From: Eubacteriales bacterium
Lineage (GTDB): Bacteria; Bacillota; Clostridia; Oscillospirales; CAG-272
Length of the DNA: 64,000 nt
Reading direction: 5' to 3'
Assembly (NCBI GenBank): GCA_045605765.1
Contig: JAZUQQ010000027.1
Span: 129,095 to 193,094, forward strand
The notes under the pieces are model-generated. The model ran no database searches, was not told where the DNA came from, and saw only the letters and a program-made list of their open reading frames with translations. Of the stretch, positions 616 through 62,174 are shown piece after piece. How positions within the stretch are numbered: position 1 is the stretch's first letter; every line of letters starts with the position of its first letter. Position numbers and translations under genes: made by a program.

Positions 616-727
616 AACATATTTAAATATATACTTATACGGAAATATCCGTCTTTGTTTCAAAGGAGTTTTATATTATAATATGTTATCCGCGTACTGT
701 CACGCGTGGTTGATTAGTAATTAATTA

Positions 728-2269
728 TTACTTTGCATAGTCAACTGCTCGGCTTTCGCGAACTACGTTGACCTTGATCTGTCCCGGATATTTAAGCTCC
801 GCCTCGATCTTCTTTGCAATCTCTCTTGCTACGAGAACCATATCGGTATCGGATATCATTTCGGGCTTGACCATTATTCTGATTTCTCTACCAGCCTGAA
901 TTGCGAACGATTTTTCTACGCCGGGAACGCTCTCCGCAAGCTCCTCCATTTTTTGGAGACGTTTGATATAATTCTCAACGTTCTCTCTGCGTGCTCCCGG
1001 ACGAGCTGCCGAAATAGCGTCAGCCGCCTGAACGATAAACGCAATTACCGAACGGGATTCTATATCACCGTGATGCGCTTCGATCGCGTGAATGATCTCT
1101 TCGCTCTCTCTGAACTTTTTAGCCAGTTCTACGCCTATCTGAACGTGCGATCCTTCTGTCTCGTGAGTCATAGCCTTTCCGATATCGTGGAGAAGTCCTG
1201 CGCGTTTTGCCACAGTGCTATCAACTCCAAGCTCATCTGCCATAACTCCAGAAAGGAGCGATACCTCTATTGAATGCATAAGCACGTTCTGTCCGTAACT
1301 TGTTCTGTATTTGAGTCGTCCGAGAATTTTTACGAGATCTGCCGGTATTCCGTGAATACCCGTGTCGAACGTCGCACGTTCGCCCGCCTGCCTTATGCTG
1401 GCTTCGACCTCTTTTTTGGATTTTTCCACGAGCTCCTCTATCCTTGTGGGATGGATTCGTCCGTCTGCAATAAGTTTTTCGAGAGTGAGTCTTGCCACCT
1501 CGCGTCTTACGGGATCAAATCCCGAAAGCGTGATGGCTTCGGGCGTATCGTCTATTATAAGATCAACACCTGTGAGAGTCTCTATTGCTCTGATATTTCT
1601 ACCCTCACGACCGATTATTCGACCCTTCATTTCATCGTTGGGAAGGGGAACTACCGATATGGTAGCTTCTGCTACTTGATCAGACGCACATCTTGCTATC
1701 GCAAGCGAGATTATGTTCTTCGCCTTATCGTCAGCAACCTCTTTAAGCTTTTCCTCTATCTCGACCAATCTCAGCGCCGCAGAATGCTTAGCTTCCTCCT
1801 CGATCTGAGAAACGATCTCTCTCTTTGCTTCTTCAACCGTGTAACCGGAAATTGCTTCGAGTCTTTCGAGCGCTTTCATTCTGAGCTGCTCGATCTTTTC
1901 GGTGAGCTCACTGTTTTCTTTAATCTTCTTATCAAGCGTTTCTTCCTTGCGTTCGATATTTTCAAGCTTTTTATCAAGCGCCGCTTCTCTCGATTCGCAT
2001 CTGCGTTCGAGTCTCGAAATCTCGCTTCTTCTTTCCTTGATCTCACGTTCAAATTCTTTATTCGAACGCATTATCTCTTCTTTGGCTTCTATTAAAGCTT
2101 CTTTCTTCTTGGTTTCAGCGGCCTTTGCGCCCTCTTCGACAAGTCTCTTTGCTTCCTGCACAGCTGAGCCTATCTTTGATTCGGCAAACTTTTTTCGAAT
2201 TAAAATTCCTGCGAGCATACCAACTGCCAAAGTGGCTACGGCAACCAAAATCCAAATCCAATCTTCCAT
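728..2269 (-). CDS. rny: Ribonuclease Y
   Basis: 513 aa with an N-terminal TM helix and a long coiled-coil. KH domain ([26 protein letters not shown]) and HD domain ([14 protein letters not shown]) are both present. Confidence 0.95.
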
Positions 2270-3907: not shown

Positions 3908-3923
3908 TTTCCTTCATCCTTTC

Positions 3924-4010
3924 TTTGGGGCTTTGCCCCAAGCCCCACTCAGAAAGCTTTTTGAAAAAAGTTTTTTGATAACTTTCAAAAACTTTCGCAA
4001 AAAAGTAATT
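3924..4010 (-). repeat. Copy A of the AAAGTTTTTGAAAG-box/hairpin repeat family, inside the lexA 5' leader
   Basis: Gene-sense reading is GCGAAAGTTTTTGAAAGTTATCAAAAAACTTTTTTCAAAAAGCTTTCTGAGTGGGGCTTGGGGCAAAGCCCC, then the RBS and ATG. Box at 3983-3995; small GC hairpin GGGGC-TTT-GCCCC at 3927-3939. Confidence 0.7.
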
Positions 4011-12186: not shown

Positions 12187-13458
12187 TTATTTTTCCTGAT
12201 ATGCTTTGAGTGCTCTCTGTCCTATATCACTTCGCCAGAAAGCGTTGTCGAAATGCACCTTATTTATATTTTTATAAGCCTTCTCGACAGCATTCCCGAG
12301 GGTGTCATCGATAGCGGTAACGCCAAGGACTCTTCCGCCCGAGGTAAGAAGCTTTTCGTTTTCGAGCTTTGCGCCCGCAACGAAGAGTTCCGCATCAAAC
12401 TCGCCGTCAACTCTTATTTCAAAGCCTTTTTCGTAGCTCGTGGGATATCCCTCAGACGCCATAATTACACAGCAGGCGTGATCACTGCTGAACTTGACCT
12501 CGATCTCTGAGAGCCTTTCGTCTGCAACTGCCATCATAATTTCGAGCAGATCGCTTTCGAGAAGCGGAAGAACGACTTGCGTTTCGGGGTCTCCGAAGCG
12601 GCAGTTGTACTCAATGACCTTCGGTCCGTCGGGAGTTATCATAAGTCCGAAATATAGGCAACCCTTGAAGGTTCTTCCCTCGGCGTTCATCGCCGCCATC
12701 GTGGGAAGGAAAATCTCCTTCATACAGCGCTCTGCAACCTCGTTTGTATAATACGGGTTAGGAGCGACCGTTCCCATTCCTCCTGTGTTAAGACCTTCGT
12801 CGTTATCGTGCGCTCTCTTATGGTCCATAGAGGATACCATCGGCACGAGAGTCTTTCCGTCGGTAAACGCAAGCACAGAGACCTCGGGGCCCGTAAGGAA
12901 TTCCTCGATAACTACGCGACTTCCGCTGTTTCCGAATACTTTATCTTCCATCATAGAGATAACAGCGTCTCTTGCTTCGTCTCTGGTCGTTGCGATTATA
13001 ACACCCTTGCCGAGCGCAAGTCCGTCGGCTTTGATAACGGTAGGTATCTTTGCAGTCTCGATGTATTCAAGCGCTTGCCTAGCATTCTCGAAGACCTCAT
13101 AAGATGCCGTAGGTATCGAGTATTTTTTCATAAGATTTTTGGAAAAGACCTTGCTTCCCTCAATTGCCGCCGCTTTGGCGGTGGGTCCGAAAGCTTTAAT
13201 TCCCGCATCACTTAGCGCATCGACCGCGCCGAGAACGAGCGGGTCGTCGGGAGCGACTACCGCAAAATCTATTTTATTGTCAAGAGCGAATTTGACGATA
13301 GCGTCAATATCCTTTGCGCCAATATTCACACACTCGGCATCGCCTGCCATTCCGCCGTTTCCGGGGAGAGCGTATATCTTTTCAACGCTGCTGTTTTCCT
13401 TTATTTTCTTTATAATGGCGTGCTCCCTACCGCCGCCGCCTACTACAAGTATTTTCAT
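12187..13458 (-). CDS. purD: Phosphoribosylamine--glycine ligase
   Basis: Starts MKILVVGGGGREHAII and has ATP-grasp motifs. Start trimmed to the ATG at 13458. The 18-aa K/F-rich extension in the ORF track is read-through of the repeat element. Confidence 0.93.
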   Translation of the reverse strand: MKILVVGGGGREHAIIKKIKENSSVEKIYALPGNGGMAGDAECVNIGAKDIDAIVKFALDNKIDFAVVAPDDPLVLGAVDALSDAGIKAFGPTAKAAAIEGSKVFSKNLMKKYSIPTASYEVFENARQALEYIETAKIPTVIKADGLALGKGVIIATTRDEARDAVISMMEDKVFGNSGSRVVIEEFLTGPEVSVLAFTDGKTLVPMVSSMDHKRAHDNDEGLNTGGMGTVAPNPYYTNEVAERCMKEIFLPTMAAMNAEGRTFKGCLYFGLMITPDGPKVIEYNCRFGDPETQVVLPLLESDLLEIMMAVADERLSEIEVKFSSDHACCVIMASEGYPTSYEKGFEIRVDGEFDAELFVAGAKLENEKLLTSGGRVLGVTAIDDTLGNAVEKAYKNINKVHFDNAFWRSDIGQRALKAYQEK

Positions 13459-13667
13459 TTTTATTTGAAACCCTTTTCGCAGAAAAACTTTTTGTAAAAA
13501 GTTTTTCCGCACCTTTTCAAAAACTTTTCTAACACTCTTTCAAAAACTTTTTTAAAACCCTTGCATATCCTTGTTTTAATTAAAGTTTTTGAAGTTCCAA
13601 GAAACTTTTTCAAAAAGTTTCTTGGTGTGGGTTCAAAACGCCGCAAGCGGCGTTGGGGGCAGAGCCC
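13459..13667 (-). repeat. Copy B of the box/hairpin repeat family (purH|purD junction), the largest copy
   Basis: Sense boxes at 13512-13528 and 13535-13550, plus one inverted box at 13583-13595. Perfect 12-bp hairpin at 13482-13507 and a 14-bp inverted repeat at 13597-13625. GC hairpin AACGCCG-CAAG-CGGCGTT at 13637-13654. Confidence 0.8.
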
Positions 13668-14852
13668 TTAGTGATGGAACAATCTCATTCCGGTAAACGC
13701 CATAGCCATACCGTATCTATTGCAGCACTCAATAACGAGATCGTCGCGTATCGATCCGCCCGGCTCTGCTATGTACTTAACTCCCGATTTCTTCGCACGC
13801 TCGATATTGTCACTAAACGGGAAGAATGCGTCCGATCCGAGAGATACTCCGTCGATCGTATCAAGATATTCTCTCTGTTCTTCCTTAGTGAAGGGAGCGG
13901 GCTGCTCGGTGAAGTATTTCTGCCAGTTGCCGTCCGCACAGACGTCCTCCTCGTTCTGGTTTATATAGCCATCGATAACGTTGTCTCTGTCGGGACGTCC
14001 AAGCGTGTCCTTAAAAGGAAGACTCAGCACTTTATCGCTCTGACGAAGGAACCAAGTATCTGCCTTGCCGCCCGCAAGACGGGTGCAATGAACTCTCGAC
14101 TGTTGACCTGCGCCGACGCCGATAGCCTGTCCGTCGTACGCAAAGCATACCGAGTTCGACTGTGTGTATTTAAGAGTGATAAGCGAGATTATAAGATCGC
14201 GCTTTGCGCTGTCGGGAAGCTCCTTATTCTCGGTAACGAGATTGTTAAGAAGTGCCTCATTTATCTCGAAATTGTTTCTTCCCTGCTCAAAGGTGATACC
14301 AAAGACCTGCTTATGCTCAACGGGCGCAGGAGTGTAGTTCGGATCTATTTTAACTATATTGTAGTTTCCGTTTCTCTTGGATTTAAGAATTTCAAGTGCC
14401 TCGCTCTCGTATCCAGGAGCTATAATTCCGTCCGAAACCTCTCTCTTTATAAGCTTTGCGGTAGTAACGTCGCAAACGTCCGAGAGTGCAACCCAGTCTC
14501 CGAAGGAGCACATTCTGTCAGTTCCTCTTGCTCTTGCGTAAGCGCAGGCGAGGGGAGACTCGTCAAGTCCTTCGATATCGTCAACGAAGCAAGCCTTTTT
14601 GAGCTTTTCGGGGAGCGGGATCCCAACTGCCGCGCTCGTCGGGCTGACGTGCTTGAACGAGGTAACTGCGGGAAGTCCGAGCGCCTCTTTCAGCTCTTTA
14701 ACAAGCTGCCACGAGTTGAAGGCATCGAGGAAATTTATAAATCCGGGTCTGCCGCAAAGTATTTCGATAGGAAGCTCGCTTCCGTCGTGCATAAATATTT
14801 TCGCAGGCTTCTGATTGGGGTTACAACCGTATTTGAGTTCAAATTCTTTCAT
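13668..14852 (-). CDS. purH: AICAR formyltransferase (PurH C-terminal-domain-only form)
   Basis: 394 aa. MKEFELKYGCNPNQ..AIGVGAGQQSRVHCTRLA..GSIRD..MAFTGMRLFHH matches the AICARFT half of PurH. There is no MGS-like cyclohydrolase domain. Confidence 0.88.
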   Translation of the reverse strand: MKEFELKYGCNPNQKPAKIFMHDGSELPIEILCGRPGFINFLDAFNSWQLVKELKEALGLPAVTSFKHVSPTSAAVGIPLPEKLKKACFVDDIEGLDESPLACAYARARGTDRMCSFGDWVALSDVCDVTTAKLIKREVSDGIIAPGYESEALEILKSKRNGNYNIVKIDPNYTPAPVEHKQVFGITFEQGRNNFEINEALLNNLVTENKELPDSAKRDLIISLITLKYTQSNSVCFAYDGQAIGVGAGQQSRVHCTRLAGGKADTWFLRQSDKVLSLPFKDTLGRPDRDNVIDGYINQNEEDVCADGNWQKYFTEQPAPFTKEEQREYLDTIDGVSLGSDAFFPFSDNIERAKKSGVKYIAEPGGSIRDDLVIECCNRYGMAMAFTGMRLFHH

Positions 14853-14958
14853 TATATTGTTCCTTTCTTTTTCGAGTAAAACTTCTTGAATGAAGTTTTA
14901 CTCAAACTCCTTTCAAGAACTTTGAATAATTTTCATTATGTAATGCGGCGAGTTTGTT
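14853..14958 (-). repeat. Copy C of the box/hairpin repeat family (purO|purH junction), diverged
   Basis: Sense box AAAGTTCTTGAAAGG (14909-14923). Perfect 12-bp hairpin GAGTAAAACTTC-TTGAAT-GAAGTTTTACTC (14874-14903). Confidence 0.7.
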
Positions 14959-15675
14959 TTACGCGTTCTTGTTTACTATTCTCGTTTCGCTCTCACCCGA
15001 TGCGATGTCGATATACCGAACAAAAAGCGAAACCTTGTTATCCTCGTTGAGATTTGTCCAGATAAGATCGGTGAGCGCGTCGATGTCCATATCGGGGAGC
15101 TCTAGGGTCTTGGGTTCGCCCTCAAAGGACGGAAGCGGATCGCCGTCACCGTTATAGGTGTGGATGAACTTTGCTCTGCCCGCTATCGGATTCGAGTAAG
15201 CGTATGTAAAGCGCTCGCAGGAGCTATCGTCTCCCTCTGCGCTCTTAAGAATTGACATAGCATAGTTCATATCTCCGTTTTCGCGATGGATTATTCCCGA
15301 AATACGCGGCGTAAAGTTCGGCTTGTCGTCCTCGAACTCGCGAGTTCTGAGTGCCTGCTCGAAGGTCATCTGCTTATCCATAAGCTCGTAGATCGTATCT
15401 GTCTGATCGCCGTTTGTTACGATAGTCTTATTTCCGAGCACTCTTACTGGATAGTAGATGATGAGATGAGGATCCACCATCTTCGACTCGTCGAAAGCCT
15501 TGGTTCTCATAGCGTCGCCCTCGGCAACGAAAACTCTGTTTCGGCTATTTACGCTTCTTCCCATAATGAAGTAAGCGGCGACCGCCTTTTTGCCGTCGGC
15601 ACTCTTGCCGATAATAATTCCTCTGCCGTGATATGCAAGAGAGTTCAGTTCTTCTTTGATAGTAGATACCTTCAT
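14959..15675 (-). CDS. purO: IMP cyclohydrolase, archaeal PurO-like type
   Basis: 238 aa. LAYHGRGIIIGKSADGKKAVAAYFIMGRSVNSRNR..IVTNGDQTD resembles the PurO family. Its position next to an AICARFT-only purH supports the call. Confidence 0.75.
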   Translation of the reverse strand: MKVSTIKEELNSLAYHGRGIIIGKSADGKKAVAAYFIMGRSVNSRNRVFVAEGDAMRTKAFDESKMVDPHLIIYYPVRVLGNKTIVTNGDQTDTIYELMDKQMTFEQALRTREFEDDKPNFTPRISGIIHRENGDMNYAMSILKSAEGDDSSCERFTYAYSNPIAGRAKFIHTYNGDGDPLPSFEGEPKTLELPDMDIDALTDLIWTNLNEDNKVSLFVRYIDIASGESETRIVNKNA

Positions 15676-15676
15676 T

Positions 15677-16306
15677 TTAGTTCTCCTTTATATATACCTT
15701 ATTGTTTTCAACCGTTATTCTTCCCTCGCAGAAAAGCTTTACCGCTTTGGGAAGTATCTTCCACTCTGCCTGTTCCATAATTCTCTTTTGCAAAGTCTCA
15801 GGAGTATCGTCCCGTCTGACCTCTACCGCCTTTTGAAGAATTATCGGACCTGCGTCACATTCGGGAGTAACGATATGTACGGTCGCGCCCGAAATCTTTA
15901 CACCCTTTTCAAGCGCCGCCTCGTGAACGTGAAGTCCGTAAAATCCCTTTCCGCAAAACGACGGAATAAGCGCAGGGTGAACGTTGATTATTCTGTTCGG
16001 AAATGCTTCATACACCTGCTCGTCAATGATAGTAAGAAATCCTGCCAGCACAACAAGGTCGATGCCCTGTGACGTCATCTCATCGGCAAGTGCCTTAGAG
16101 TAGTCGGCAATAGAGTCGTAGTCACGTCTTGCGAGGACTTTTCCCTTAATATTTGCATTTTTTGCGCGTTCGAGTGCATAAACGCCCGGTTTTGATGCGA
16201 TAACGAGAGTTATCTTTCCGTTTCCGAGCTCGCCTTTTGCCTCGGCGTCGATAAGCGCCTGCAAATTCGTACCGCCACCCGAAACGAGAACTGCAATTTT
16301 AGTCAT
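15677..16306 (-). CDS. purN: Phosphoribosylglycinamide formyltransferase
   Basis: MTKIAVLVSGGGTNLQALID..NVHPALIP..G..HEA (Asn/His/Asp catalytic set). Start trimmed to the ATG at 16306; the 31-aa extension in the track is repeat read-through. Confidence 0.92.
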   Translation of the reverse strand: MTKIAVLVSGGGTNLQALIDAEAKGELGNGKITLVIASKPGVYALERAKNANIKGKVLARRDYDSIADYSKALADEMTSQGIDLVVLAGFLTIIDEQVYEAFPNRIINVHPALIPSFCGKGFYGLHVHEAALEKGVKISGATVHIVTPECDAGPIILQKAVEVRRDDTPETLQKRIMEQAEWKILPKAVKLFCEGRITVENNKVYIKEN

Positions 16307-16433
16307 TTTTATTTTTCGCAGAAACCCTTTTTTCAAAAAGGGTTTCCGCCCCTTCCCAAAAACTTTCTTAGAGAAACTTTTTGAAAAAAGTTTCTCCAAA
16401 CCTCTTCAAAAACTTTTCTTAAATTTTGCTTGC
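16307..16433 (-). repeat. Copy D of the box/hairpin repeat family (purM|purN junction)
   Basis: Two sense boxes (16351-16366, 16401-16417). Two perfect 12-bp hairpins: GAAACCCTTTTT-TC-AAAAAGGGTTTC (16321-16346) and GAGAAACTTTTT-GA-AAAAAGTTTCTC (16371-16396). Confidence 0.8.
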
Positions 16434-17483
16434 TTAAGCGAGAATTACGCCGTCGTCACCCTTGATTATCTCACCGATAACGTAAGCGTCCTCACCGTGT
16501 GCTCTGAGAATTTCAAGCGCCGTATCGACCTCGCTTGCGGGAACGACAACGCTCATACCAACGCCCATATTATATGTATTGAACATATCTCTCTCGGGAA
16601 TATTACCCGTCTTTGCGATAAGATCGAATATCGGAAGAACCTTGACTGCGCTCTTATCGATCTTTGCGGTAAGACCGCTCGGGATAGATCTCGGAATATT
16701 CTCGTAAAATCCGCCGCCCGTGATGTGTGAGATGCCCTTTACGTCAACCTTTTCAAGAAGCGCGAGAATGCTTCTCACGTAAATTCTCGTAGGAGTGAGC
16801 AGAGTTTCTGCAATACTCTTTCCGCCGAGCGCATCGCAGGGAGTGTAAAGACTGTCGGGGTTATTATCTATATCGAAAACCTTACGACAAAGCGAGAACC
16901 CGTTTGAGTGAACTCCGCTCGAAGCGAGTGCGATAACGACGTCGCCCTCTGCCATTCTCTTATTATCGAGTATTTTCTTCTTATCAACGATACCGACCGC
17001 AAAGCCTGCGAGGTCGTATTCCTCTGTCGGCATCATGCCGGGATGCTCTGCGGTTTCTCCTCCGATAAGCGCCGCACCCGACTGAACGCAACCCTCGGCA
17101 ACTCCGCCGACGATAGACGCAATCTTCTCGGGAATGTTCTTTCCGCAGGCAATATAGTCAAGGAAGAAGAGCGGCTTTGCTCCGCAGCAGATTATATCGT
17201 TCACACACATAGCGACAGCGTCTATACCGATTGTATCGTGCTTATCCATAAGGATAGCCATTTTGACCTTTGTTCCACAACCGTCGGTACCCGAAACGAG
17301 CACAGGCTCCTCCATTCCCGCAATGGGAAGTCCGAAGCAGCCGCCAAATCCTCCGACGTCGTCGAGGCAGCCCTCGTTCTTGGTGCGCGCGATGTGCTTT
17401 TTCATAAGCTCAACAGCTTTGTATCCGGCAGTGATATCAACGCCTGCCGCTGCGTAACTTTCAGATCTTGAATTATTGTGCAT
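16434..17483 (-). CDS. purM: Phosphoribosylformylglycinamidine cyclo-ligase (AIR synthetase)
   Basis: 349 aa. SYAAAGVDI..VSGTDGCGTK..DYIA..ALASSGVHSNGFSL are typical PurM motifs. Confidence 0.93.
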   Translation of the reverse strand: MHNNSRSESYAAAGVDITAGYKAVELMKKHIARTKNEGCLDDVGGFGGCFGLPIAGMEEPVLVSGTDGCGTKVKMAILMDKHDTIGIDAVAMCVNDIICCGAKPLFFLDYIACGKNIPEKIASIVGGVAEGCVQSGAALIGGETAEHPGMMPTEEYDLAGFAVGIVDKKKILDNKRMAEGDVVIALASSGVHSNGFSLCRKVFDIDNNPDSLYTPCDALGGKSIAETLLTPTRIYVRSILALLEKVDVKGISHITGGGFYENIPRSIPSGLTAKIDKSAVKVLPIFDLIAKTGNIPERDMFNTYNMGVGMSVVVPASEVDTALEILRAHGEDAYVIGEIIKGDDGVILA

Positions 17484-17582
17484 AATTTTCCCCTATCCTT
17501 TCAAAAACTTTCTGCGAGAAAACTTTTTGAAAAAAGTTTTCTCGCGCTCTTTCAAAAACTTTACTTAAAATAGTTTTAAGTT
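17484..17582 (-). repeat. Copy E of the box/hairpin repeat family (purF|purM junction)
   Basis: Two sense boxes (17497-17511, 17547-17562) flank a 13-bp hairpin GAGAAAACTTTTT-G-AAAAAAGTTTTCTC (17516-17543). Confidence 0.8.
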
Positions 17583-19010
17583 CTAATCTTCTTTGCCGTT
17601 CCAGCAATATGTGCAGACCTCGTCCGCAGGAAGTCCGATAGCTTCAAGAAGTCCCTCTATCGACTGGAATTCTACCGAATCAAAGCCGAGCTTCTGGCAG
17701 ATGACCTCGCGAAGCTTCTTTCCTCGCTCGGTATCGGGACTTGAATACTCGCTTATATATTTTTCGCCTTCCTCACCTTCAAGCTCACGGATAACTCGGC
17801 GTGCTATGAGCTCTAGCTCGGACGTACTGCGCGAAAAATTCAGATATTTACAGCCGTACATAACGGGCGGGCAAGCCGAGCGTATATGTACCTCCTTTGC
17901 GCCATGCTCGTAAAGGAACTCGGCGGTCTCGCTCATCTGAGTGCCTCGCACTATCGAATCGTCAACGAAAAGGAGTTTCTTTCCCCTGATGAGCTCGTGT
18001 ACGGGAACGAGCTTCATCTTGGCTATCTGATTTCTTACCTTTTGATCGGTAGGCGTAAAGCTCCTCGGCCAAGTGGGGGTATATTTTATTATCGGTCTTG
18101 CGTACCGGATATGACTCTCGTTTGAATATCCAACTGCGTGAGCTATACCCGAATCGGGAACTCCACAAACGTGATCAACGCCCGCGCCGAGAGCAGTCTT
18201 CGCATCGTGCCTTGCCATTATCTCCCCGTTTTTGTTGCGCATACACTCGACGTTGACCCCTTCGTAGCAGGACGTGGGATATCCGTAATACGACCAAAGA
18301 AAGGCGCATATCTTTTTCTTTTTGCCGGGCTCCGCGAGACGTTTTACCTCGTGCGCCGATATCTCAACTATCTCTCCCGGTCCCAGTTCGCGAAACTGCT
18401 CATATCCAAGCTTGGTTGCGGCAAACGATTCAAAGGTCGCACAGTAGCCATCCTCTGCTTTGCCGATCATTATCGGCGTTCTTCCCATAGCATCTCTTGC
18501 CGCGATTATCGTTCCTCTCTCAGTCAGAATAAGTATAGATGCCGATCCTTGTATCTTGCTTTGAGCGTACTTTATTCCTTCCACGAAGTCCTTTCCGTGA
18601 TTTATAAGCGCGCCGAGCAGCTCGGTAACGTTCGTCTTTCCGCCGCCCATAGCCGACAGGTACAATCCCTCGCTGTTTACAAGCTCATCGAGAAGCTCCT
18701 TCGCGTTCTTTATAGTGCCTACCATTATAAGAGCATAAGTGCCGAGGCGCGAATGTAAAAGAAGCGGTTGAGGACTCGTGTCGCTTATACAACCGATACA
18801 AGCATTTCCTCTAAGCTCGCTAAGGTCCGAATCGAACTTTGTCCTAAACGGTGTATTTTGAAGATTATGTATAGATCTCTGGAATTTATCGGTATCGTTA
18901 AACGCAGCCATACCACCGCTTACCGTACCAAGATGAGAATGATAGTCCGTTCCGAAAAAGACGTCAAGAACACAGTCTCTTTTGGAAACAGCTCCGAAAA
19001 AGCCGCCCAT
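17583..19010 (-). CDS. purF: Amidophosphoribosyltransferase homologue with Gly in place of the N-terminal catalytic Cys
   Basis: PRTase motif LLFVDDSIVRGTQ; Fe-S-ligand-like Cys residues (CAFLW, SACPP..GC, CTYCW). Start placed at the ATG at 19010 (MGGFFG) behind AAAGGA; the track's TTG at 19034 adds 8 aa. Canonical PurF begins MCGI(V/F)G. Confidence 0.85.
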   Translation of the reverse strand: MGGFFGAVSKRDCVLDVFFGTDYHSHLGTVSGGMAAFNDTDKFQRSIHNLQNTPFRTKFDSDLSELRGNACIGCISDTSPQPLLLHSRLGTYALIMVGTIKNAKELLDELVNSEGLYLSAMGGGKTNVTELLGALINHGKDFVEGIKYAQSKIQGSASILILTERGTIIAARDAMGRTPIMIGKAEDGYCATFESFAATKLGYEQFRELGPGEIVEISAHEVKRLAEPGKKKKICAFLWSYYGYPTSCYEGVNVECMRNKNGEIMARHDAKTALGAGVDHVCGVPDSGIAHAVGYSNESHIRYARPIIKYTPTWPRSFTPTDQKVRNQIAKMKLVPVHELIRGKKLLFVDDSIVRGTQMSETAEFLYEHGAKEVHIRSACPPVMYGCKYLNFSRSTSELELIARRVIRELEGEEGEKYISEYSSPDTERGKKLREVICQKLGFDSVEFQSIEGLLEAIGLPADEVCTYCWNGKED

Positions 19011-19106
19011 ATATTGATCCTTTCTTCTTTTCAAGGAGTATAGTTTTCAAGTTAAAAAAACACGAAGCGGTCAGCCCCCCTAAAATCGGATGCTGACCTC
19101 ACTCAT

Positions 19107-19648: not shown

Positions 19649-19688
19649 AAAAAGGCAGTTCTATCCATAGTGAAAGGTAAGAACTGCC
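19649..19688 (-). terminator. Intrinsic terminator forming the ZTP riboswitch expression platform
   Basis: Minus strand reads GGCAGTTCT..AGAACTGCC followed by TTTTT. The 5' arm overlaps the aptamer's conserved 3' CCGUCUGGGCAG segment. Confidence 0.75.
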
Positions 19689-19762
19689 CAGACGGTCGGC
19701 CTTGTATGTTATCTTTGCTCCCCCGCGGTAAACCGCCAATCCGTCAGTCACAAAAATACATT
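19684..19762 (-). promoter_or_regulatory. ZTP (pfl-motif) riboswitch aptamer
   Basis: Minus strand reads GUGACUGACGGAUUGGCGGUUUACCGCGGGGGAGC, a linker, then CCGACCGUCUGGGCAG. This matches the pfl consensus GUGACUGGCG..CCGGGGAGC..CCGCCUGGGCA. The pseudoknot pair covaries (GACGG with CCGUC). Confidence 0.85.
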
Positions 19763-19790: not shown

Positions 19791-19819
19791 ATTATAACAC
19801 ACAAAGCCGCTTTTGTCAA
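19791..19819 (-). promoter_or_regulatory. Consensus sigma-A promoter of the pur operon
   Basis: Minus strand carries TTGACA (19814-19819), a 17-nt spacer and TGtTATAAT (-10 at 19791-19796). Confidence 0.75.
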
Positions 19820-21677: not shown

Positions 21678-21726
21678 TGTTATAATCGTGATAAGATGAT
21701 GTTATTCTACAAAATCATATTTTAGT

Positions 21727-21790
21727 AAAGTTTTTGAAAAGGTGCAAAAAACTTTTTACAAAACGTTTTTCTGCGAAAAGTTTTCCGAAT
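21727..21790 (+). repeat. Copy F of the box/hairpin repeat family (5' leader of the ABC exporter operon)
   Basis: AAAGTTTTTGAAAAGGTGCAAAAAACTTTTTACAAAACGTTTTTCTGCGAAAAGTTTTCC is near-identical by eye to the start-proximal module upstream of purD. It lies downstream of a TGtTATAAT -10 at 21678-21686. Confidence 0.75.
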
Positions 21791-38835: not shown

Positions 38836-39714
38836 TTATTTAAGTGAAATCTTTACGTTTGCATCTGTTCCGAGGGCTCCGAAAAGAAGCTCTCGTATTT
38901 TTTCGGTCTTATCCGAATATTTTTCAGGCAAAAGAATTCTCACTGCGGAGTCCTTGGTAAGCTCTTCGCCCACAGTTCTGAAACGCTCAGATGGTATTAA
39001 AAGAGAGCTGTGCTCAAAAAGTGCATACGCCTCGCGGTAGATCTTCTCGGCACTCTCTTTTTGTCCGCTTTCAAGAAGCGCATTCACTCTTTCAATGTAA
39101 AAATCCTCACACAAAGGATCGATAGAGCAGGCTTTTTCGGATATTTCACAAATTCTCATGAAATCGAGATCGCGTCGCAATGCGGCGCAGGCAATAGCGA
39201 ATATACGCCTATAAGTATCGTGATATTTTTCAACAGCAAGTCTTGTTTTTTCGTCTATAAAGTGCTTACTTAGAAAAAATCCCCTGTATATTTCGAGCGC
39301 ACGAAGGGCAATCGGCTTCATTTCTTCGAGACTGCCGCTCAAAAACACCTTTTGGACAAGGCGTTCAAAGATATCGCTATCTATCTGCGCTTCATTTGGA
39401 AGTACGAATCGGTAAGTATTGTTCTCAAAAACAATAACCCCGTGCGGATCAAGACCGATATCCGCAAGTGTTTTTCTCGCCCTGTGAAGCATAGCGTTAA
39501 GTGCGTTGAGCGCCTCAGGGTAACGACCCGAATAGGCGCCGTATCCAAAAGTCGCATCTATAAGTTCCCGCCTGTTTACAGATCGCTCGCGGTTAAGTAT
39601 CAGATATTTTATAAGCCGCCATTTTTTATGTCCGCGGCCGTCTTGTTCACAAGCCGTTTTGCCACAAAACGAGAGAGTAAACGGTCCAAAAAAGGATATT
39701 TTCAGATTTTGCAT
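38836..39714 (-). CDS. SARP/AfsR-DnrI-like transcriptional regulator (wHTH + BTAD)
   Basis: 292 aa. The N-terminal OmpR-type wHTH-like region (ISFFGPFTL..KWRLIKYLILNRERSVNRRELIDA) is followed by TPR-like BTAD helices (ALEIYRGFFL..). Confidence 0.6.
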   Translation of the reverse strand: MQNLKISFFGPFTLSFCGKTACEQDGRGHKKWRLIKYLILNRERSVNRRELIDATFGYGAYSGRYPEALNALNAMLHRARKTLADIGLDPHGVIVFENNTYRFVLPNEAQIDSDIFERLVQKVFLSGSLEEMKPIALRALEIYRGFFLSKHFIDEKTRLAVEKYHDTYRRIFAIACAALRRDLDFMRICEISEKACSIDPLCEDFYIERVNALLESGQKESAEKIYREAYALFEHSSLLIPSERFRTVGEELTKDSAVRILLPEKYSDKTEKIRELLFGALGTDANVKISLK

Positions 39715-49756: not shown

Positions 49757-49817
49757 GTGCAAAGTTAAGGTGGCTTTGCTTCGCAAAGCAAGAATTGATT
49801 AGAAGGTTATTTTTAGC

Positions 49818-49910
49818 AAAGTTTTTGCGAAAGCTTGAAAACCCTTTTTATAAAAAAGTTTTCAAAAAAGTTTTTGAAAGGTATGGAAAACATTTATTAA
49901 AAGTTTTCCG
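49818..49910 (+). repeat. Copy G of the box/hairpin repeat family (nrdR 5' leader)
   Basis: Sense boxes AAAGTTTTTGCGAAAG (49818-49833) and AAAGTTTTTGAAAGG (49867-49881). Hairpins at 49837-49863 and 49885-49909. A GC hairpin GCTTTGC-TTC-GCAAAGC lies at 49773-49789 just upstream. Confidence 0.75.
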
Positions 49911-49920
49911 AACAGAAAAA

Positions 49921-53365: not shown

Positions 53366-53601
53366 CCCCCTCGGAGCAGAAAAACCAATATGTAAATTTG
53401 TGTATCAAAAAATACTAATTATGAAGAGTTTTCCACTTTAAAAAGCACAAAAAGATCGTACCATAAATTTTCTTTTTTGGGATTATATCCCAGACAGAGT
53501 CGGCGTGCTTTATTTTACATATCGCGGCGGGTCAGATAAATTTTAAATATTTTGAGATAATATAACGAAAACGCTTGCATCTGAGAGCTTTTTCGTTTGT
53601 T

Positions 53602-61918: not shown

Positions 61919-62174
61919 AGACCCTCCGAAATTTTGAATTTTTTTCGTATACCAGTATTCTATCACACTTTTTCCGATTTGTGAACATATTTCTGTAAAA
62001 AAATTTATTTTTCTACAAATTTGTATCTTAAATGCAAAAGACGGTCTGTTTTATATTCAATTTATCCAAACAAGGAGAAAATTTTCTGCCAAAATAAAAT
62101 TTTCTTCATCCGAATATAGACTTTTTGTAGCGTTTATGATATAGTAAAAGCACCTGTATGAAAGGAATTTTATT

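Follow-up and report, generated by a model that had tools for sequence, protein, structure and literature searches.

The pur operon and its filled junctions

The window analysed here, a stretch of 64,000 nucleotides of contig JAZUQQ010000027.1 (assembly GCA_045605765.1) from a Eubacteriales bacterium, carries a purE-F-M-N-O-H-D-L operon in which four gene junctions are filled by a repeated unit composed of a short box and a hairpin. The identities of purL, purD, purH, purO, purN, purM, purF and purE were confirmed by Pfam. The operon is headed by a promoter at 19791-19819 (-), a perfect TTGACA-17-TATAAT with a TG extension, and Rfam places a ZTP (pfl) riboswitch (59 bits, 19679-19761, -) directly behind it; since both stand at the operon head, the units lie inside the pur transcript. 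The purH gene (13671-14852, -) encodes a short AICARFT-only protein of 394 aa, whose Pfam match begins at profile position 76, and the gene just upstream (14962-15675, -) encodes PurO (PF07826), an IMP cyclohydrolase of the archaeal type.

An earlier note on this DNA had claimed that the purF-purM, purM-purN, purO-purH and purH-purD gaps are not ordinary spacers, and reading them on the gene strand shows exactly the parts that it listed. The purF-purM gap contains a box, a 15-bp perfect hairpin, a second box and the ATG, while the purM-purN gap contains two tandem box-hairpin units, GCGAAAAATAAAA and the ATG. The purO-purH gap holds a single unit of a T-to-C variant followed by an ordinary Shine-Dalgarno (SD) sequence, and the purH-purD gap is composed of two GC-rich mini-hairpins, a reverse unit, a 27-nt spacer, an orphan box and a forward unit. 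The hairpins lie at 17514-17545, 16368-16399, 16318-16349, 14874-14903 and 13479-13510, with a box ahead of each.

Architecture of the box-plus-hairpin unit

In the window, the unit consists of the box AAAGTTTTTGAAAGG, 0-5 nt, and a hairpin of 12-16 bp with the apex AAACTTTTT-TC-AAAAAGTTT; family-wide it is polar, with a 15-nt box, (A)AAAGTTTTTGAAAGG, 0-5 nt and then a mostly perfect hairpin of 12-18 bp. A search with a covariance model (cmsearch), trained on 91 copies mostly from genomes other than that of the window, recovered 10 full units (24.9-70.1 bits), which with 2 orphan boxes make up 7 loci: the four pur gaps and the leaders of lexA (3945-3998), of an ABC exporter gene (21724-21777) and of nrdR (49815-49915). 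The features are as follows.

17511-17565 (-): full unit, box and 15-bp perfect hairpin, purF-purM gap (cmsearch 70.1 bits, sequence reading, RNA folding)
17497-17511 (-): orphan box, exact AAAGTTTTTGAAAGG, 13 nt upstream of the purM ATG (17483) (sequence reading, box scan)
16365-16419 (-): full unit, first of a tandem pair, purM-purN gap (66.5 bits)
16314-16364 (-): full unit, second of the tandem pair, stem variant GGAAACCC/GGGTTTC, box ending in GGGAAGGGG (32.8 bits, RNA folding)
14870-14926 (-): full unit of the T-to-C subfamily, box AAAGTTCTTG, arms AACTTC/GAAGTT, purO-purH gap (61.2 bits)
13630-13667 (no strand assigned): pair of GC-rich mini-hairpin modules, reading GGGCTCTGCCC and AACGCCGCTTGCGGCGTT along the gene strand, immediately past the purH stop (sequence reading, RNA folding)
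13579-13629 (+): full unit, opposed to the pur genes (46.3 bits, RNA folding)
13531-13553 (-): orphan box AAAGTTTTTGAAAGA, directly upstream of the unit at 13476-13530 (18.8 bits, box scan)
13476-13530 (-): full unit upstream of purD (ATG 13458) (68.1 bits)
3945-3998 (-): full unit, lexA 5' leader, with a promoter-like TTGATT-17-TATAAT upstream of it (51.6 bits, Pfam)
3922-3944 (-): GC mini-hairpin module GGGGCTTGGGGCAAAGCCCCAAAG, attached to the lexA-leader unit (sequence reading, RNA folding)
21724-21777 (+): full unit, stem imperfect, ahead of the ABC exporter gene (ATG 21795) (51.8 bits, RNA folding)
49815-49863 (+): degenerate unit, first of two upstream of nrdR (24.9 bits)
49864-49915 (+): full unit, second upstream of nrdR (47.0 bits)

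The box with at most 2 mismatches is matched 11 times in the window against 0.37 expected (0 of 100 shuffles as high), and the palindrome AAACTTTTTNNAAAAAGTTT with at most 3 mismatches is matched 9 times against 0.19 expected, with no shuffle reaching this number. All units but one (9 of 10) and all boxes but one (11 of 12) are co-oriented with their flanking genes, the exception being 13579-13629 (+); the covariance model reproduces the tally of the earlier note, which had 12 boxes, 7 loci and 11 boxes in the gene direction. The opposed unit forms a head-to-head doublet with the elements at 13476-13553 (hairpin, reverse-complement box, 27 nt, box, box, hairpin).

A 9-mer resembling AAAGTTTTT is present three times per unit (direct, inverted, direct); the box nearly repeats the 5' arm in direct orientation, and apart from one G x G it is complementary to the loop and 3' arm together. 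RNA folding predicted the main hairpins in every junction RNA, with z-scores of -3.8 to -6, and left the A-rich AUG stretch open, whereas an alternative pairing of box to arm was in most junctions too weak to rival the main hairpin. Three weak model matches were rejected after reading: an ordinary terminator at 53542, a normal ribosome-binding site at 39707 and a generic hairpin at 62070.

Gene calls are affected by the filled gaps, and the earlier note was right to treat several listed starts as false N-terminal extensions: purD is listed from 13512 and starts at ATG 13458, purN from 16399 (start 16306) and nrdR from 49795 (start 49921). The 72-nt purE-purF gap is the one long pur junction without a unit; it carries a weak hairpin with GTGTTTTTTT after it at 19064-19078 (-), which may be a partial terminator or attenuator.

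The unit family in other genomes

A pattern scan over one genome per GTDB species, using the box, N3-12 and AAACTTTTT, returned at least 117 loci, and about 100 of the 117 loci listed hold the whole unit, including the 3' arm, which the pattern did not require. At least 55 genomes carry it, and most of these are uncultured Clostridia, Oscillospiraceae-like or other, sampled from gut, rumen and termites. Six Desulfobacterota (56-70% GC) are among the carriers listed: Thermodesulfobacteriota SMAG_U8218, in which 50 kb hold at least 17 copies, two Solidesulfovibrio-like genomes, Maridesulfovibrio sp. FT414, and metagenome-assembled genomes of a Syntrophaceae member and of a 'delta proteobacterium'. 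Carrier genomes were examined as blocks of up to 8 kb, and 197 hairpins were counted in the 864 kb of DNA examined.

Between genomes, the box, the apex AAACTTTTT/AAAAAGTTT and the polarity of the loop are nearly invariant (loop TC in 77 and AC in 16 copies, against GA in 2 and GT in 2). The stem base varies between genomes but is always complementary, with a median stem of 16 bp and 60% of stems perfect. Compensatory changes in the arms, which had been put forward as something to check, were found: in the 91-sequence alignment 93.8% of cells are paired, 16 of 18 pairs have changed on both sides and 224 cells are compensatory, while none of 500 shuffles scored as high and no slid register came close. 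In the T-to-C subfamily the change is present in the box and in both arms in 4 of 4 copies, versus 124 copies with T at all three places and 0 mixed. Templated copying, gene conversion or alternative pairing could lie behind this three-way change and the likeness of box and arm. Boxes of type A (GAAAGGAG or GAAAGGGG) and of type B (GGAGGGGG) both have an SD-like 3' end.

The genes next to units are unrelated housekeeping genes, and no recurrent partner gene was found. The earlier view that the unit matches no known family also held when Rfam 15 and the literature were searched, the latter by literal sequence. On the window, Rfam reported only tRNA and the ZTP riboswitch, with no unit match at the gathering score or at E values up to 10; the best match within 13300-17700 reached 25.3 bits against a threshold of 48, and six related loci gave a T-box only. 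Literature searches with literal sequences and for REP-like repeats in Clostridia returned nothing relevant. A BLAST search of the consensus unit against plasmid and phage collections gave no match, though matches may have been lost to the low-complexity filter, and no unit copy turned up when viral contigs were scanned with the pattern.

Other small elements accompany the family. GC-rich mini-hairpins (GGGGCAAAGCCCC, GGGCAGAGCCC, AACGCCGCAAGCGGCGTT) adjoin the hairpin side of many units, forming mosaic elements reminiscent of BIMEs; they were seen at loci L010, L049, L050, L057, L063, L068, L069, L083, L092, L095, L099 and L106, with six modules at L069 alone. Short tandem repeats of the CAAATCCCTAA type and of the CCCTATT/ACCTCTT type follow units in JAZQWH (L009, L035, L104) and JAISFM (L001, L018, L112). 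The JAZQWH units are embedded in genome-specific repeats of 190-424 bp, in which neither an Rfam match nor a transposase open reading frame (ORF) was found. A T-box leader (109.6 bits, L033 2188-2451, +) lies in an SGB_7835 locus that also holds five units.

Insertion, retention and decay of copies

For the pur junctions, the relatives compared were 80 metagenome loci (532 kb) with PurN 62-84% identical, and none of them contains a unit copy. Where purM lies upstream, the purM-purN junction of these relatives is overlapping or very short (TGCTGATG, GGAATGAC and similar). Locus L121 is syntenic from purM to purL and has ordinary SDs, with 12 nt between purM and purN, 16 nt between purO and purH and 70 nt between purH and purD, versus 127, 106 and 209 nt, respectively, in the window; L120 likewise has compact purO-purH and purH-purD junctions with ordinary SDs. 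Because the junctions of relatives are compact and free of units, the pur fillings are best read as lineage-specific insertions. The lineage of the window would thus have gained the fillings and lost the translational coupling of its pur junctions, and on this comparison of sequences the unit appears as an invader of the pur operon and not as an ancestral part of pur regulation.

Four of the 7 filled gaps lie within one operon, for which a hypergeometric estimate (7 of about 55 gaps) gives p ~0.003. Taken with the tandem arrays and with neighbouring filled gaps at other loci, this clustering suggests local spread.

Copies are both kept and lost. In SIG672 (L067), whose lexA leader is 76% identical to that of the window at the nucleotide level, a degraded box and the mini-hairpin are kept and the 36-nt hairpin is absent, and a Solidesulfovibrio-like pair has an intact copy (L043) and a decayed copy (L107) at the orthologous site. 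The gap between dnaK and dnaJ carries a unit in both SIG665 and SIG669 (L083, L115). Upstream of nrdR in L005, a rabbit-gut relative, three tandem diverged units of about 57 nt (AAAGTTCTTTTGG and TCCTTTTCTTTCAAGAAAAGGA) lie at 700-860 (-), the same position as that of the two window units.

Orientation and position relative to genes

Orientation was counted on gene calls from a codon log-odds caller, as longest-ORF calling miscalls purH. Only 3 of 155 oriented copies are inside genes. Counted across all genomes, 76 copies point the same way as the downstream gene and 64 the opposite way, and in co-directional gaps the unit is forward in 56 cases and reverse in 30. In 14 window-like genomes, a post hoc group drawn by eye from unit resemblance, 32 copies are forward and 8 reverse (26:7 without the window), whereas in the 41 other genomes there is no orientation bias, with 24 forward and 22 reverse. 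The earlier note had counted randomly oriented copies as speaking against a functional RNA element: randomness is what the 41 genomes show and the window-like genomes do not. In the window, GC skew follows the gene strand, and replication-linked and transcription-linked orientation are thus not separated.

The hairpin side of the unit is close to a gene end, at a median of 42 nt from the start codon for forward copies and 12-16 nt from the stop codon for reverse copies, while the box side is farther from gene ends.

Marks of amplification within genomes

Copies within one genome have a common stem base, and SMAG_U8218 has two coexisting subtypes. Head-to-head doublets are present in SMAG_U8218 and RGIG1778 (records DATEAM and JAFQFS) and in the purH-purD gap of the window, and recur as repeats of 150-185 bp with the layout hairpin, reverse-complement box, spacer of 27-90 nt (often palindromic), box, hairpin. 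In window-like genomes, singlets and tandem arrays account for most of the copies. Singlets lack terminal inverted repeats, and no recurrent transposase was found among 634 neighbouring ORFs. An ordinary miniature inverted-repeat transposable element, the other outcome that the earlier note had set against its view, is matched by the inverted doublets of some genomes, but not by any target-site duplication, terminal inverted repeat on singlets or transposase that we could find.

Non-Watson-Crick positions of the stem, read on the box strand, are G-T in 34 cases and A-C in 17, whatever the transcription direction. This excess and the polar loop are a weak hint that a strand-specific form of single-stranded DNA is involved, rather than selection at the mRNA level.

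A RAYT-like ORF was found in L064 (7531-7881, HIH ... YIYYNP), tied to a different, GTAG-tagged palindrome. This palindrome, GTAGGGGCGACCATTGGTCGCCC, lies just upstream of the ORF (L064 7531-8000, -), and a related copy is inside its coding sequence; the pair is a REP system separate from the box-hairpin unit present in the same genome.

The unit next to start codons

The box ends in GAAAGG(A/G)G, 1-3 nt ahead of the stem. The only SD-like sequence of purM is the GAAAGGA of the orphan box together with GGGG. For forward copies, the distance from the end of the hairpin to the ATG peaks at 6-12 nt (12 of 76), and 10 of these 12 copies have no SD motif between hairpin and ATG, while in control genes (n=239) an SD motif lies within the last 12 nt in 49% and at -20 to -4 in 78%. 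The hairpin of unit 16314-16364 ends 11 nt ahead of the purN ATG (16306), and that of unit 49864-49915 ends at 49909, 11 nt ahead of the nrdR ATG (49921), in both cases with no SD between. The start codons used are credible from N-terminal motifs (hemB RPRRLR, NUDIX SAGGVVF, patatin GLVLEGG, NrdR MRCPIC, as well as PurN and PurD). The leaders of purN, nrdR and the ABC exporter gene are all A-rich.

The SD-hairpin-AUG arrangement at the 12 loci suggests a hairpin-bridged ribosome-binding site, in which the stem would bring the SD-like end of the box close to the start codon. A role as an mRNA 5' or 3' stabiliser, by analogy with REPs and STAB-SD, is equally conceivable; for the sense copies, an effect of the unit on translation or on mRNA stability is plausible.

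A probable REP-like invader of the pur operon

Taking these observations together, we consider it likely that the pur fillings are previously uncatalogued, non-autonomous dispersed palindromic repeats of the REP/REPIN or BOX kind that invaded the pur operon in this lineage, and we regard the unit as a REP-like genomic passenger and not as a purine-specific control element. Within a genome the unit would gain copies, as singlets, in tandem arrays and in head-to-head doublets, through a trans-acting agent; the mobility itself is read from the distribution of copies. A single-strand mechanism of the HUH/Y1 type would fit best, because the hairpin is strand-polar, there are no target duplications and singlets have no terminal inverted repeats. 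In the lineage of the window, the repeat would have entered four junctions of a formerly compact pur operon, where its copies would be transcribed within the pur mRNA, predominantly in sense orientation. Effects on expression would be secondary: each copy is predicted to form a stable intercistronic RNA hairpin, and the 3' end of the box may act as the ribosome-binding site of the next cistron, directly for purM and across the hairpin for purN and nrdR. Such a box-borne site would account for the tolerance and retention of sense copies close to start codons.

Several points weigh against this interpretation. No target-site duplication was detected: flank repeats are distributed as in a shuffled-partner control, and none was present in 3 DATEAM doublets that were inspected. 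The GTAG tag is absent, with GTAG or CTAC at the unit edge in 1 of 126 copies. A tblastn search of 1.4 Mb with approximate IS200, IS608 and RAYT protein sequences found the one RAYT-like ORF and no unit-linked transposase, and no empty/filled polymorphism was found between close strains. As to the bridged site, no stable hairpin and, within 20 nt, no SD precedes the start of the ABC exporter gene (ATG 21795), so that A-rich leaders may be able to initiate without an SD and without bridging. REPs are lineage-specific and vertically inherited, whereas the box and apex of the unit are near-identical across two phyla. The sense bias in the window-like genomes, the proximity to start codons and the retention of some sites across genera suggest selection for a host function rather than pure parasitism.

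These last points lead to the strongest alternative, which we hold to be possible but rather unlikely: that the unit is primarily an RNA module under selection in cis, serving as a portable site for ribosome binding or as an mRNA stabiliser, and not a passenger. The box would then be an SD (STAB-SD-like) or an AU-rich cleavage site of the RNase Y type, and the hairpin would either shield the downstream 5' end or place the SD next to the AUG. This explanation overlaps with that of a passenger repeat and differs in whether function or selfish spread is the cause of the copies. It draws on the 32:8 bias, on the 6-12 nt peak without another SD, on the SD-like purine run kept in type A and type B boxes, on the orphan box as the only SD of purM, on AUG regions that are predicted to be unpaired after the last hairpin, and on positions retained upstream of nrdR (window and L005, in diverged sequence) and of dnaJ (L083, L115). 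However, orientation is random in 41 genomes, where many copies lie just past the stops of convergent genes; relatives express the same operon without the element, and the lexA-leader copy of L067 has decayed. Nor do the stems show a G-U excess on the mRNA strand, the counts on the element strand being GT 8 versus AC 8 for forward and GT 7 versus AC 1 for reverse copies.

A further reading, a horizontally spreading 'portable ribosome-binding module' in which a selfish repeat carries its own SD in the box and a hairpin that bridges to the next start, seems doubtful to us. Such a repeat could insert between cistrons, or between an SD and its AUG, without killing the gene; mobilisation would be of a non-RAYT/GTAG kind, accounting for the presence in both Clostridia and Desulfobacterota, and the three-way covariation would reflect its mechanism.

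It is quite improbable that the unit is the binding site of a dedicated trans regulator, an RNA-binding protein or a small RNA, governing a regulon of nucleotide and DNA metabolism (pur, nrdR, lexA, recA, dnaA/N, dnaX). The strong conservation of box and apex would suit such a site, as would the neighbours pur, nrdR and lexA in the window and recA, dnaX, dnaN, dnaA and dnaK/J at other loci, but the gene set is otherwise mixed (ABC exporters, hemB, hisZ-like, patatin, proC, peptidase), copies occur in both orientations and after stop codons, genome-specific stem bases and doublets are marks of amplification, and close relatives lack the element.

A DNA operator array, in which the three AAAGTTTTT-like half-sites are bound as double-stranded DNA, for instance by CodY, has in its favour the three 9-mers per unit and an apex that is a perfect palindrome, as in dimeric operators, but it is hardly credible for sites that are intra-operon and far from the promoter at 19819-19791, with a polar loop and with a variable stem base whose perfect covariation a base-specific operator would not need. 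The CodY-like character once proposed for the box did not survive a count: the consensus AATTTTCWGAAAATT with at most 3 mismatches has 6 matches in the window against 5.47 expected, and their overlap with units is not beyond chance, three matches clipping units at the mismatch limit (3980-3994, 16412-16426, 49857-49871) and most units being without one.

Intrinsic terminators or attenuators partitioning the pur operon are just as improbable, for, as had been remarked earlier of the hairpins, no U-tract abuts the stem in either orientation (the tails are GAA/AAAG in forward and ACCCCUUUC in reverse copies) and the essential downstream pur genes would lose their only strong promoter, even though the hairpins are stable, the reverse ones lie 12-16 nt past stop codons, and 16400-16367 was flagged as terminator-like, in one weak match caused by the next box. 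A promoter was also rejected, as the TTGAAA of the box has no usable -10 at 17 nt.

Dispersed palindromic repeats are well studied in Proteobacteria and hardly in the uncultured Clostridia that dominate gut and rumen, where this family is abundant. The unit splits translationally coupled junctions and causes false N-terminal extensions in automatic gene calls, so that an annotation model for it is useful in itself. The recurrent SD-hairpin-AUG layout offers a testable idea for repeats beside the start codons of essential genes, and a cultured carrier with a complete genome, Maridesulfovibrio sp. FT414 (NZ_CP104854), is available.

Comparison with known systems

Integron attC sites resemble the unit in being polar, strand-specific hairpin sites between consecutive co-oriented ORFs. 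An attC identity was rejected: attC sites have imperfect stems with extrahelical bases, whereas 60% of unit stems are perfect, the RYYYAAC/GTTRRRY cores are absent, the pur order is conserved and there is no integrase.

The pneumococcal BOX and RUP elements and the Neisseria Correia elements are, like the unit, small modular intergenic repeats that are co-transcribed, RNA-structured and able to alter downstream expression. BOX is made of boxA, boxB and boxC modules of 45-59 nt, and Correia (NEMIS) elements have 26-bp terminal inverted repeats and a TA duplication. By these descriptions neither contains a box-plus-single-hairpin unit, and both are set apart from the family described here; the earlier note found no likeness in sequence to BOX or RUP, and Rfam returned no match.

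For the putative ribosome-binding function, two systems are pertinent. The STAB-SD of cryIIIA in Bacillus thuringiensis is an SD-like GAAAGGAGG far upstream of the start that is said to bind 30S and protect the mRNA. It shares with the unit an SD-like sequence in the 5' leader, distant from the start codon; unlike the unit, it is found at a single locus and has no attached hairpin. In phage T4 genes 38 and 25, a hairpin cuts the SD-AUG spacing to 5 or 11 nt (PMC3014915). The arrangement proposed here is alike, in that a distant SD is brought to 5-11 nt in T4, and the units would leave 11 nt at purN and nrdR and 6-12 nt elsewhere. The T4 split sites differ in being single, gene-specific structures and not copies of a dispersed repeat, and the split site of the unit is a putative one.

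The closest likeness is to the REP/BIME and REPIN-RAYT systems of Enterobacteria and Pseudomonas, which are short extragenic palindromes with a conserved tag on one side (PMC3116915, PMC3337134, PMC3733652). As with REPs and REPINs, the unit has many copies per genome, genome-specific variants, singlets as well as, in some genomes, inverted doublets, and no target duplications, and its copies lie between co-directional and convergent genes, co-transcribed into mRNA hairpins. The head-to-head doublet has the architecture of a REPIN (PMC3337134). Unlike REPs, the unit carries as its tag a 15-nt AT-rich box ending in the SD-like GAAAGG, and not GTAG or CGTC, its stems are mostly perfect, no unit-linked RAYT was found, and in one clade it shows a strong sense bias and proximity to start codons. 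Of the two marks by which members are recognised, the unit lacks the tag, and no RAYT linked to it was found in the 1.4 Mb searched, but it behaves like the REP class, and its box and apex, conserved across two phyla, make it a good case in which to study how such repeats move.

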